NCBI GenBank assembly: GCA_043815885.1
Contig: JBDRIL010000007.1
Coordinates: forward strand, 1 to 13,200
DNA from: an archaeon
Lineage (GTDB): Archaea > Iainarchaeota > Iainarchaeia > Iainarchaeales > 1-14-0-10-31-34
Reading direction: 5' to 3'
DNA: 13,200 nt
The notes beneath the pieces were generated by a model. It searched no databases. It was not told where the DNA came from and was given only the letters and a program-made list of their open reading frames with translations. The translations under genes and the position numbers were made by a program. Each line of letters opens with the position of its first letter. The stretch's first letter is position 1. Below, piece after piece: positions 3,086 to 5,757 of this stretch.

Positions 3086-4480
3086 ATGAGAAAAAAAATT
3101 AGAATTCATAATCCTTATACAGGGGATTTGTTGGCAGTATTTGATGCGCATTCAGAACAGCAAGTGAAAAAATTAATTAGTTCATCTTTTAAATACCAAA
3201 ATCGTTTAAGTATTGAAGAAAAAAGACGAATACTATTGAATAGCGCTAAAGAATTGCATAAAAGAAGAAGCGAGCTTTCAAGATTAATTACTTCTGAATC
3301 CGGTTTATGTTTAAAGGACACTGGAAATGAAGTAAAGCGAACTGTTTCTGTTATTAGGGAAGCCGTTCAACTAGCTAACAACATTGATGCAATTTCTCTC
3401 GCTGAATTTAGCGAATACAGTGACTCCAAACTAAAGATTATAGCGGAACCTTTTAATTTAATTCTTGCGGTAACTCCGTTCAATCATCCAATTAACCAGA
3501 TTGCTCACAAAATCTGTCCTGCGATTGCTGTGGGATCAAAGATTTTAGTTAAACCGTCTGAAAAGACTTTATTGTCTGCAATGGCGTTACTTGAGATTTT
3601 TTATGATAATGGTCTCAAAAAAGAGGCAGTTAGACCAATTATTATTCCAAAAGAAGAAAAAATATTTGAAAAATTAATTTCGAGTCCATTTATACAAGTA
3701 ATTGCGTTTACTGGAAGTTTTAAAACAGGAAAACTTATGAATAAATTGTTATTAAGAAATAATAGATGGAATGTCAAACAAATATATGAATTGGGGGGAA
3801 GTTCTCCATTAGTTGTAGCGGATGACGCTGACATCAAAACAGCAGTTAATGTTGCTTTATCTGTGTTCCAGCACTCTGGTCAAAGGTGTACCACGATTAG
3901 AAAAATATTTGTCTGTGAAAGTATTTTTAGTGAATTCTTGGAAAAATTTATTTCAGTTACCGGAAAATTAAGAGTAGGCAATCCTTTAAATAAAAATACT
4001 GATGTCGGAACTTTAATAGATCAAGAGGCTGCAAAAAGAGTTGAAGGCAAGGTTAAAAAAGCAATTTCTGAGGGAGCAAAGCTTGTTTTTGGCGGAAAAA
4101 GAGATGGCGCTCAATACCATCCAACGATTTTAACTGACGTTAACCCAAACTCTAATCTAATAAAAGAAGAAACATTTGGACCTGTAGCTCCAATCCTAAA
4201 AATAAAAACTATAGACGAAGCTATTAGAATTACTCTTAAACACGATTATCTTCTTGCAGGAGCAATTGTTACGAAGAGTAAAAAGAAGGCTATTCATTTA
4301 TCTGAAAATATAGGGGTAGGGCAATTTAATTGGAATGCACCGCCAAGCTATAGAAAAGAATTCGCTCCGTTTGGTGGTTTTGGGAAATCCGGTAACGGAA
4401 TTAAAGAGGGAGTAATTTTGCTTGGAAAACAATATATGAAGATTAGAACATTTTATTCACAGGGAAGGCAAGGAATATGA
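3086..4480 (+). CDS. phnY: NAD(P)-dependent aldehyde dehydrogenase, phosphonoacetaldehyde dehydrogenase (PhnY)-like
   Basis: ALDH core motifs: KPSEKT, FTGS, ELGG, catalytic Cys in SGQRCT, EETFGP. PhnY-like segments: LITSESGL, TPFNHP, and the C-terminal YRxExAPFGGxxxSGNGxKEGV. Confidence 0.75.
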   Translation: MRKKIRIHNPYTGDLLAVFDAHSEQQVKKLISSSFKYQNRLSIEEKRRILLNSAKELHKRRSELSRLITSESGLCLKDTGNEVKRTVSVIREAVQLANNIDAISLAEFSEYSDSKLKIIAEPFNLILAVTPFNHPINQIAHKICPAIAVGSKILVKPSEKTLLSAMALLEIFYDNGLKKEAVRPIIIPKEEKIFEKLISSPFIQVIAFTGSFKTGKLMNKLLLRNNRWNVKQIYELGGSSPLVVADDADIKTAVNVALSVFQHSGQRCTTIRKIFVCESIFSEFLEKFISVTGKLRVGNPLNKNTDVGTLIDQEAAKRVEGKVKKAISEGAKLVFGGKRDGAQYHPTILTDVNPNSNLIKEETFGPVAPILKIKTIDEAIRITLKHDYLLAGAIVTKSKKKAIHLSENIGVGQFNWNAPPSYRKEFAPFGGFGKSGNGIKEGVILLGKQYMKIRTFYSQGRQGI

Positions 4481-5757
4481 GTATTTTATCAGATTATTCT
4501 GTATATGGAATTAGCTCTATGGTTAGAGACTTATATATTTTAAGTGATTCTCCTCTTTCTCTTGAAAGAACTATTATTAGAAAAAAATACCCTATTAATC
4601 CTTTGCTGTTTTCAGAAATTCATGTTGTCACGGACAAAAAATTCAAGGTAGGAGACTTAGTTCTTTTTAGGTTACTTAGAAATGGTTGTTATAATGACAT
4701 GGAAACGTTATGGGGAAACCGTGTTCCCCTTAAAAAAGGAAAATATTATATAGGTGTTCTCTGTGAACGAGGGTCAACAAAATTTATAACTGCAGAGTTT
4801 TCAAGTAATAAAATTAAGAAAAACACTGTGTTTAATTTTGTTGCCCAAGGCGGGGGGATTGGAACTGCGACCGGGTATTCGCCAGCACTTAGTCAAAGAA
4901 ACTTAGGTGCACCTTATGTGAGAGTAGAAGGTTTGCTTGCAACCAAAGATGGAAAAATATTAAACATAAAGAATAATACACACTCTATTGCTAATAATAT
5001 AGGTAAAACAAAAAATATTCCGACTTTGTTAATTCTAGGAAGCGGAACAGATACTGGAAAAACTACGATTGCCTGCAAAATAATCAAGGAATTAAAACAA
5101 AAGGGGGTTTCTTGTGCGACACTCAAGGCCTCTGGGACTGGATGGTACGAAGATAGTTTAATGCACCAGAATGCCGGTGCTTTTCCTTCACTAAATTTTA
5201 CGTTTGTTGGGCTTCCTACTACCTACTATGTTCCAAAAAAAACTTATTTGAAGTATTTGAGTCGTTTGTTATCCTTTTTTTCTGATCCAAGAAGAATCCC
5301 TGAAAACTGGATTCACCCAAAACTTAGGAGAAAAAAACGAATGACTCCAGAGCTTTTGGTTATAGAGCATGGAGGAGACTTGATTTTTGCTAATATTCCT
5401 ACTTTTCTTTCAAGCAGTCAATTAATGAAAAACGTGTTTGGGATAGTTATTTGCAATGAAAGCGTAGTGAGTGTAATTGGCGCAATTAATCAGCTAAAGA
5501 AGTATCAGCCAAATAAAAACAAGAAAGTAAAAATTTATGTTTCTGCTCCAATTTCTATGAATCCAGAGGCTGTTTACAAGAGATTGGAAACTCTCCTTAG
5601 AAAAAGAATTATTTCAAGCGTCTTTGACGTGAAAAAAAACATTATTTTACAGAAAAAGAAAAGGCTGTCATGTAAAGAGTACGCAAAACATTATAAGAAT
5701 ATAGATTCTATTAAAATATTGGTTGAAAAAATTATTGCTGATGTGGGGAGGAATTGA
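4477..5757 (+). CDS. DUF1611-like / dethiobiotin-synthetase-like P-loop NTPase; candidate ATP-dependent amide ligase or acyltransferase
   Basis: Walker A GSGTDTGKTT (5038-5067), then KASGTG, DSLMHQNAGA, FTFVGLPTTY and VIEHGGDL, plus a beta-rich N-terminal domain (GDLVLFR...). It has an ATGA overlap with the ALDH stop. Confidence 0.65.
   Translation: MSILSDYSVYGISSMVRDLYILSDSPLSLERTIIRKKYPINPLLFSEIHVVTDKKFKVGDLVLFRLLRNGCYNDMETLWGNRVPLKKGKYYIGVLCERGSTKFITAEFSSNKIKKNTVFNFVAQGGGIGTATGYSPALSQRNLGAPYVRVEGLLATKDGKILNIKNNTHSIANNIGKTKNIPTLLILGSGTDTGKTTIACKIIKELKQKGVSCATLKASGTGWYEDSLMHQNAGAFPSLNFTFVGLPTTYYVPKKTYLKYLSRLLSFFSDPRRIPENWIHPKLRRKKRMTPELLVIEHGGDLIFANIPTFLSSSQLMKNVFGIVICNESVVSVIGAINQLKKYQPNKNKKVKIYVSAPISMNPEAVYKRLETLLRKRIISSVFDVKKNIILQKKKRLSCKEYAKHYKNIDSIKILVEKIIADVGRN

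Follow-up and report, generated by a model that had tools for sequence, protein, structure and literature searches.

Which reaction is carried out by the single unassigned gene of a phosphonate-type operon in an archaeon? The operon lies, tightly packed, on the plus strand at positions 1117-6733 of the first 13,200 nucleotides of contig JBDRIL010000007.1 (assembly GCA_043815885.1, order Iainarchaeales); this whole stretch is called the window, and the gene at 4477-5757, like its product, is called X. An earlier note, made from the sequence of the window, had taken X for a DUF1611-like P-loop protein and a candidate phosphonoacetate:amine ligase. We found that X is a real conserved gene of a rare unnamed clade, and that phosphonate-type genes and a carbamoyltransferase gene recur around it. 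Our reading, held tentatively as possible rather than probable, is that X joins phosphonoacetate to the amine of an amino acid, giving a compound like N-phosphonoacetyl-ornithine (PALO) or N-phosphonoacetyl-aspartate (PALA), and that the carbamoyltransferase serves as a spare for the enzyme which this compound would inhibit. Such a compound may naturally inhibit the synthesis of arginine or pyrimidines.

A conserved protein with a BioD-like P-loop domain

The ATG of X (4477-4479) overlaps the TGA (4478-4480) of the upstream aldehyde dehydrogenase (ALDH) gene in an ATGA, and its stop is separated by one nucleotide from the ATG (5759-5761) of a gene for ornithine carbamoyltransferase (OTC). These two junctions and the Walker A motif had been pointed out before and were all found again, and X is indeed the sole gene of the operon without a Pfam or NCBIfam assignment. 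No model of either library reached its cut-off on X, and the weak MobB, BioD, CbiA and DUF1611_C matches were restricted to the surroundings of residues 183-236: MobB reached 23.5 of the 26.6 bits required, BioD (TIGR00347) 21.4 of 83.3 over residues 186-232 only, and DUF1611_C (PF07755) 14.5 of a gathering cut-off of 25. By these scores X is a member of neither DUF1611 nor BioD. A word-indexed search returned 37 proteins including the entry of X itself, the 36 relatives having E values from 3e-103 to 1e-24. Full-length relatives of 29-45% identity made up 34 of the 37; they are unnamed or 'hypothetical', with one mislabelled as BioD. The 35-row alignment contains 35 invariant columns.

AlphaFold modelled X as two domains with a mean predicted local distance difference test (pLDDT) of 91.8 and a predicted template modelling score (pTM) of 0.91. 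The earlier note had suggested comparing its structure with those of BioD and DgcN. Among solved structures the P-loop domain matched dethiobiotin synthetase BioD best (Z 15.0, root-mean-square deviation 3.5, 193 residues aligned), followed by CTP synthase (Z 14.3), the DUF1611 proteins 2g0t and 2obn (Z 13.6 and 12.7) and DgcN (7xrj, Z 12.4); Foldseek with X also ranked BioD first (E 8e-7). Since rows within one Z unit were counted as ties, the fold sets this domain in the neighbourhood of BioD, CTP synthase and DUF1611, and no closer. The fold, the Walker A and the conserved lysine and acidic residues place it among the SIMIBI proteins of the BioD/CobQ/CTP-synthase type, as had been proposed. 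The Walker A of BioD reads GTDTEVGKT and is joined by K37 and E115; X likewise has a Walker A of the GTDT-GKT type, K217 as the lysine that follows strand 2, and the acidic motif EHGGD. BioD, however, is a single domain of about 220 residues, whereas X has two domains and no biotin context around it.

The term DUF1611-like holds for X at the level of the superfamily, because its P-loop fold is that of 2g0t, 2obn and 7xrj (Z 12.4-13.6), but it does not hold as Pfam membership in view of the PF07755 score. Weak PF07755 matches were seen in 18 of the 35 family members, none below E 0.0045, and NCBI labels the relative from Bacillus paranthracis 'DUF1611 domain-containing protein'. X further differs from DgcN in its gene context and in its N-terminal part: residues 1-175 had no match in Pfam, DUF1611_N included, and the N-domain folded alone (pLDDT 85) reached at best Z 3.3, with 20 chains at Z of at least 2 and none of 48,161 chains at Z of at least 5. 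The absent structural match is no proof of a new fold. A sequence search of solved structures hit the P-loop stretch only (best E 0.014 with the single sequence; 0.0042, to Clp1, with a profile). A Clp1-like kinase reading was dropped, the Clp1 match being confined to the Walker A region.

X recurs in phosphonate-type clusters

Upstream of X, the operon encodes the two parts of a thiamine diphosphate (TPP)-dependent decarboxylase, a phosphoenolpyruvate (PEP)-mutase-family protein and the ALDH (Table 1). The two decarboxylase genes overlap by 17 nucleotides; for the beta part TIGR03297 was the best model, the sulfopyruvate decarboxylase models were nearly equal, and all stayed below their cut-offs. 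A catabolic reading of the cluster was dropped, since mutase and decarboxylase form a biosynthetic pair.

Table 1. Positions of X, its parts and other genes in the window
Feature	Position	Strand	Evidence and details
TPP-dependent decarboxylase alpha (phosphonopyruvate/sulfopyruvate decarboxylase-like)	1117-1617	+	PF02776; TIGR03845 111.5 and TIGR03297 105 bits, both below cut-off
TPP-dependent decarboxylase beta	1601-2167	+	PF02775; TIGR03297 Ppyr-DeCO2ase 179.9 bits (model 171-358); TIGR03846 162.4
PEP-mutase-family protein, non-canonical gating loop EDNVFPKRCS	2180-3079	+	PF13714 192.9 bits; TIGR02320 301 (cut-off 319.55)
PhnY-like ALDH, probable phosphonoacetaldehyde dehydrogenase	3086-4480	+	TIGR03250 388.4 bits (cut-off 635.65)
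X	4477-5757	+	426 residues, ATG start; stop TGA 5755-5757
X, Walker A GSGTDTGKTT (residues 188-197)	5038-5067	+	read from the translation
X, N-terminal beta-rich domain	residues 1-175		AlphaFold model
X, BioD-like SIMIBI P-loop domain	residues 176-426		AlphaFold model, structure comparison
Bacterial-type OTC, extra cluster-linked copy	5759-6733	+	TIGR00658 352.1 bits (cut-off 280.85)
Secreted-looking repeat protein	1-819	-	Pfam only BNR_4
Beta-CASP/metallo-beta-lactamase nuclease	7321-8580
Basic protein	10890-11531	-	weak matches, papain-like fold

TIGR03250 was the best-scoring family for the ALDH, yet its equivalog cut-off was not reached. The best solved relative was 4i3t (E 3e-76), E235 and C268 are present, and R85, H134, R267 and R423 align with R111, H162, R293 and R450 of 4i3t, which we take to be the phosphonate-pocket residues Arg108, His159, Arg290 and Arg447 of PhnY. 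By its family score, its solved relative and these aligned basic residues, the ALDH is PhnY-like. A general-base glutamate marks hydrolytic ALDHs; because E235 is kept, the enzyme should release the free acid. Pfam and NCBIfam scans found no other amide-forming enzyme, ligase or CoA ligase in the operon.

Six neighbourhoods were read: the window, three loci termed L001, L052 and L053, and two plasmid loci, L169 and L170. The scans of genome and metagenome contigs yielded one and two full-length loci, so that the contexts of a minority of the 35 homologues were read; the plasmid loci came from tblastn of plasmids and carry more distant relatives, from other clades of the tree described below. 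L001 (Korobacteraceae) contains phosphonopyruvate decarboxylase (Ppd), X, an AMP-binding enzyme and a PEP-mutase-like protein, and L053 contains Ppd, X and an AMP-binding enzyme. In L052, where X is identical to a protein of Scytonema sp. PCC 10023, the order is ATP-grasp ligase, major facilitator superfamily (MFS) transporter, ATP-grasp ligase, PF05118 oxygenase, PEP mutase, Ppd alpha, Ppd beta, X and transposase. The cluster on the Priestia megaterium plasmid (L169), flanked by IS6, reads OTC-like, ATP-grasp, Ppd alpha, Ppd beta, X-like, ATP-grasp, M20, luciferase-like oxidase and PEP mutase; that of the B. paranthracis plasmid (L170) reads PEP mutase, ATP-grasp, MFS, TauD, Ppd alpha, Ppd beta, aspartate carbamoyltransferase (ATCase), X-like and ATP-grasp-like. 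PEP-mutase-family and/or Ppd genes are thus found in all six, which ties X to phosphonate-type clusters.

An oxidising enzyme is encoded in four of the six neighbourhoods, each time a different one: the ALDH in the window, the PF05118 2-oxoglutarate (2OG) oxygenase in L052, TauD in L170 and the luciferase-like oxidase in L169. The 2OG oxygenase FzmG converts phosphonoacetaldehyde to phosphonoacetate, according to the part of PMC8942020 that was available. By analogy, the ALDH, the 2OG oxygenases and the luciferase-like enzyme could all supply phosphonoacetate. The earlier note had made its proposal depend on an association of close homologues with carboxylate-producing clusters; such an association was found, PEP mutase or Ppd being accompanied by an ALDH, a 2OG oxygenase or a luciferase-like oxidase. 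Of the relatives of the window ALDH, the best two lie on the contigs of 5221 and 17938 bases along with X and OTC. The archaeal subclade has thus preserved ALDH, X and OTC as a trio, and it alone retains the ALDH. No aminotransferase was found in the six stretches, and the phosphonate part therefore probably lacks an amine.

A carbamoyltransferase gene recurs beside X

OTCs are marked by the motifs STRTR, HPxQ, DxxxSMG and HCLP. The enzyme encoded downstream of X carries STRTR, HPCQ, DTWISMG and HCLP and scores above the OTC cut-off, and is thus an OTC by score and by all four motifs. A longer frame starting with TTG at 5723 exists; the 324-residue form from 5759 matches a database entry at 100% and agrees with the starts of its relatives. 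The genome of the window (G000, 92% complete) has two matches over the OTC cut-off, this cluster copy and a protein on contig C14 (379.7-379.9 bits), as well as an ATCase-like gene and a carbamate kinase; ArgG had no match there. In the order of the window the OTC cut-off is passed by proteins of 26 of 61 genomes, and G000 alone has two such matches. The cluster OTC shares 41% identity with the C14 protein and 61-75% with the OTCs linked to X in other genomes. The C14 protein (G000:C14:20747-21661; 6733-7704 of L147, minus strand), which passes the OTC cut-off, reads SLRTR, DSWMSYH and NCLP, and its substrate may be other than ornithine.

Five X-linked OTCs were among the 14 best OTC matches, the other nine lying on unreadable contigs of 1.3-13.9 kb. 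Outside the six neighbourhoods, links between X and OTC were taken from equal longest-contig sizes and from accession order. Thus P0182 (75% identical to the cluster OTC) shares a longest contig of 5221 bases with the X homologue P0010, P0183 (74%) one of 146460 bases with P0011, P0184 (72%) one of 17938 bases with P0006, P0189 (63%) one of 67083 bases, from Scytonema, with P0003, and P0195 (61%) one of 23078 bases with P0004; in a metagenome-assembled genome (MAG) of Micrarchaeota the X and OTC proteins have consecutive accessions. Altogether an OTC or ATCase was found in eight gene sets with X or an X-like gene. In the OTC tree the four archaeal X-linked enzymes form one clade (support 96) together with P0185, from an unread 1.3-kb contig, while the Scytonema enzyme and that of the 23078-base contig sit among other bacterial OTCs, so that the X-linked label needs four changes. 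As the X-linked OTCs do not form one clade, repeated recruitment is suggested.

The partner is an ATCase in L170, where it adjoins the X-like gene and passes its cut-off (TIGR00670, 311 bits), and an OTC-like protein below the cut-off in the plasmid operon of Priestia (TIGR00658, 263.6 bits). The carbamoyl-phosphate motifs of the Priestia protein (L169 5730-6644) are altered to STRTN, DTWVDME and HDMP, and one of them in the B. paranthracis ATCase (L170 7039-7935) to STRTY. The recurrence of an OTC or ATCase partner is the strongest clue to the function of X, and one that the earlier note had left aside.

A rare clade, sister to genes of arginine operons

An exhaustive profile search found 875 clusters (50% identity) at E of at most 1e-3 and 71 at E of at most 1e-30. 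In the members sampled, only marginal CbiA, MobB and DUF1611_C matches on the Walker A stretch exceeded the cut-off, and the clusters matched in the ESM Atlas are unnamed or partly labelled DUF1611, and nothing else. A quick maximum-likelihood tree was built from 112 rows (45 core-family, 21 arginine-operon, 2 plasmid and 44 context-unknown representatives), excluding representatives outside 300-470 residues and core-family fragments of at most 330 residues. The core family of X forms one clade (SH-aLRT 100), sister (85) to a clade of arginine-operon genes (99), and X groups (97) with P0006, from the Micrarchaeota MAG, P0010 and P0011. X is therefore outside the arginine-operon clade and belongs to a rare unnamed clade of its own. 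In the phylum of the window two of 215 genomes matched at E of at most 1e-10, G000 and, with a sister-clade gene, G153; the core family occurs in one of the 215 and a PEP-mutase-like gene in two, so the cluster is an island within this archaeal phylum. Among 401 Acidobacteriota genomes, a tally that includes the unpublished genome G239, 114 matched at E of at most 1e-10 and only G215 has the core family; in the order of G215, one of 401 genomes, G215 itself, matched at E of at most 1e-60.

Residues conserved in at least 90% of the core and arginine-operon clades and at least 80% of the remaining superfamily are G188, G194, K195, T196, K217, G220, D226, E297 and G299 in the P-loop domain and G59, G80, R98, G126, G129 and G152 in the N-domain. 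This conserved N-domain with the invariant R98 suggests that X itself binds a second substrate. Two fused proteins stand out in the superfamily: P0086 (939 residues) joins an X-like part to a S-adenosylmethionine (SAM) methyltransferase and a TauD dioxygenase, and P0153 (982 residues) joins guanylate-kinase-like, X-like and alliinase/aminotransferase-like parts. Judged by their domains, these fusions hint at further natural-product roles.

Among the 20 highest-scoring non-core Acidobacteriota matches, the sister-clade gene adjoins argC in every locus, with argB in 19 and an OTC-like gene in 17. The archaeon G153, from the order of the window, has a full arginine operon (L146, contig C1, 3940-12733) in the order argG, X-like, argC, argD, N-acetylornithine-type carbamoyltransferase (NF003384, 475 bits), argB, M20 peptidase and argH; its P-loop gene, between argG and argC, occupies the place of argA or argJ. 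A 2026 GapMind preprint, in the part available, describes such a gene as 'a very distant homolog of a D-glutamate acetyltransferase' and predicts it to be the missing N-succinylglutamate synthase; we equate this predicted synthase with the sister clade by context and description.

X and the arginine-operon clade share the two-domain architecture, an alignable beta N-domain, the residues G188, G194, K195, T196, K217, D226, E297 and R98, and a carbamoyltransferase gene nearby. They differ in size (about 410-450 residues in the clade of X, about 350-390 in the other), in setting (PEP-mutase/Ppd clusters against argG-X-argC-argD-argF'-argB operons) and in the Walker A (GTxTDVGKT against GTCMNSGKT); features confined to the clade of X are some 45 additional residues at the N-terminus, the insert P281-R284, H230 and a C-terminal extension with Y402. 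No argB, argC or argD is present in the window.

A proposed function and its alternatives

The fold, the family and the gene neighbourhoods of X are established by these data; from them we infer the substrate, the use of ATP, the product and the role of the OTC in immunity. PEP would be rearranged and decarboxylated to phosphonoacetaldehyde, which the PhnY-like ALDH would oxidise to phosphonoacetate. X would then attach this acid, as its phosphonoacetyl group, to an amino acid through the amine; the acceptor is likely to be ornithine in the window and, in the Bacillus variant, aspartate. Most probably the chemistry would follow BioD and CobQ: with ATP, the P-loop domain would phosphorylate the carboxylate, and an amine bound in the N-domain would attack the resulting acyl phosphate. 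This would yield an N-phosphonoacetyl amino acid of the PALO or PALA type, a bisubstrate analogue of carbamoyltransferases, and the co-transcribed OTC would be a spare or tolerant copy of the inhibited enzyme. Bacterial clusters would use ATP-grasp ligases and an MFS pump to convert the product into a peptide and export it.

The operon contains no aminotransferase and no other ligase, which leaves X as the only candidate to couple the acid to an amine. Enzymes of its fold class use ATP to activate oxygens, and its relatives acylate the nitrogen of glutamate, by experiment in DgcN and by prediction in the sister clade. PALO and PALA are potent synthetic inhibitors of carbamoyltransferases. The switch between OTC and ATCase, both with housekeeping-grade scores, finds its simplest explanation in products that mimic the transition states of carbamoyl-phosphate with ornithine or aspartate and in an extra enzyme that would shield the producer, as the resistant OTC ArgK does in the case of phaseolotoxin.

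Phosphonoacetate is an intermediate in just two characterised pathways, according to the available part of PMC8942020. Our literature search found nothing connecting DUF1611 or the family of X with phosphonate, no natural N-phosphonoacetyl amino acid and no phosphonoacetyl-ornithine gene cluster; in the titles and abstract openings of the matches listed, no carbamoyltransferase was tied to a phosphonate cluster. The word 'carbamoyl' is absent from PMC13302981 and PMC12723261, and 'carbamoyltransferase' and 'dethiobiotin' are absent from PMC8942020. A known parallel is phaseolotoxin, whose producer carries a resistant OTC, ArgK, within the cluster (PMC4530439, in the part available). Both are biosynthetic clusters with a second OTC, and phaseolotoxin, an ornithine-based mimic of carbamoyl-phosphate delivered as a peptide, resembles the proposed product. 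It is, however, a sulfodiaminophosphinyl compound and not a phosphonate, no biosynthetic gene is homologous, and immunity in the cluster of X is putative.

Several observations weigh against the proposed ligase. Judged by their scores, the decarboxylase models would also allow a sulfonate route. The PEP-mutase-like protein falls short of the TIGR02320 cut-off (Table 1). The motif EDKX5NS is Ppm-specific (PMC8942020, in the part available); it is present in L052, L169, L170 and G056, the only other PEP mutase in the phylum of the window, but both the window protein and that of L001 (7534-8463, EDSVFPKRSS) fail it. Mutase activity is therefore predicted only, and phosphonoacetate is not assured. 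The paired change of Lys to Asn/Ser and Thr to Arg in these proteins may be compensatory. The window OTC is fully canonical and about 60% identical to ordinary bacterial OTCs, so that it bears no mark of tolerance to an inhibitor. No OTC was found in the 10.5-kb stretch of L052, and L001 and L053, both on cut contigs, show an AMP-binding enzyme beside X and neither ALDH nor OTC. The ATP-grasp ligases of L052, L169 and L170 could form the phosphonoacetyl amide instead.

Further points against the ligase lead to an alternative that we consider unlikely, in which X is an acyl-CoA-dependent N-acyltransferase like DgcN or an alternative ArgA, transferring acetyl, succinyl or phosphonoacetyl from CoA to an amino acid or an intermediate of the pathway, with the P-loop binding the nucleotide part of CoA instead of hydrolysing ATP. 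Yu et al. (2023) reportedly linked DgcN, DUF1611 and acetyl-CoA. DgcN, the only characterised relative, is an acetyl-CoA-dependent D-glutamate N-acetyltransferase (EC 2.3.1.312; PMC11747546, in the part available) and matches X in structure (Z 12.4), while the sister position of the arginine-operon clade (SH-aLRT 85), its genes beside argC in the 20 Acidobacteriota loci and one archaeal locus, and the N-succinylation of glutamate predicted for it in the part of the preprint available would, by analogy, favour acyl-CoA chemistry on the alpha-amine of glutamate. Given DgcN and the predicted sister clade, ATP-driven activation of phosphonoacetate by X is an inference. The AMP-binding, CoA-ligase-like genes beside X in L001 and L053 would also fit an acyl-CoA donor; yet four of the six clusters (window, L052, L169 and L170) have no CoA ligase, and E235 of the ALDH implies, by the general-base rule, release of the free acid. 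An amine-bearing phosphonate would moreover need an aminotransferase, which none of the six stretches contains.

BioD-type enzymes form mixed anhydrides with phosphate. This raises a second alternative, clearly improbable in our estimate, in which X is a phosphonoacetate kinase releasing phosphonoacetyl phosphate, and the carbamoyltransferase homologue itself transfers the phosphonoacetyl group to ornithine or aspartate. The alternation of the partner between OTC and ATCase along with the cluster, and the altered motifs of the two plasmid enzymes, would agree with this. However, the window OTC and its X-linked relatives keep all canonical motifs and pass the OTC equivalog cut-off, the product would tightly inhibit the enzyme that makes it, and the conserved N-domain with R98 suggests that the second substrate is bound by X.

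Very improbable is a BioD-like ureido or carbamate chemistry, in which X would activate the carbamoyl or ureido oxygen of a compound carbamoylated by the OTC or ATCase, in preparation for ring closure or amination. In its favour, no fold matched better than BioD and CTP synthase, and the carbamoyltransferase partner is constant; but the genes present offer no route to an amino-phosphonate acceptor, and N-acylation of glutamate, the first step otherwise missing from the arginine operons, accounts best for the sister clade there. We give as slight a chance to the absence of any pathway link, the OTC being the working OTC of the archaeon on a transferred island and X having an unrelated role, for example in regulation or maturation: tight spacing is common in a compact genome and the cluster OTC alone in G000 has the full canonical motif set, but archaea, a cyanobacterium and two plasmids of Bacillota all show the association, with non-orthologous carbamoyltransferases, and the catalytic-type residues of X are conserved throughout the superfamily.

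Other genes of the window

Three further genes of the window are listed in Table 1. The nuclease matches aCPSF1 from model position 176 only, its N-terminal part lacking, and its score for type VII Cas14, 284.6 bits, is far below that model's cut-off of 800. The secreted-looking protein is built of repeat units of about 45 residues with the motif ...DSNDKPHISYYD.... The basic protein gave weak Peptidase_C39_2 and phytochelatin-synthase-like matches.

Implications

The operon of G153 extends the predicted alternative ArgA to archaea of the small-genome phylum of the window. Surveys of phosphonate clusters that filter on EDKX5NS would drop proteins with ED[NS]VFPKR[CS]S. The widest form of the proposal is that these clusters make natural counterparts of PALO and PALA by a new ATP-dependent phosphonoacetate:amine ligase, with OTC or ATCase as immunity, some of them using the PEP-mutase variant that mining filters out; we regard it as rather doubtful. 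If true, a clade of a large P-loop superfamily without a name would gain its first function and phosphonate biosynthesis a new amide-forming step, and archaea, cyanobacteria and Bacillota would hold natural carbamoyltransferase inhibitors with a predictable target.

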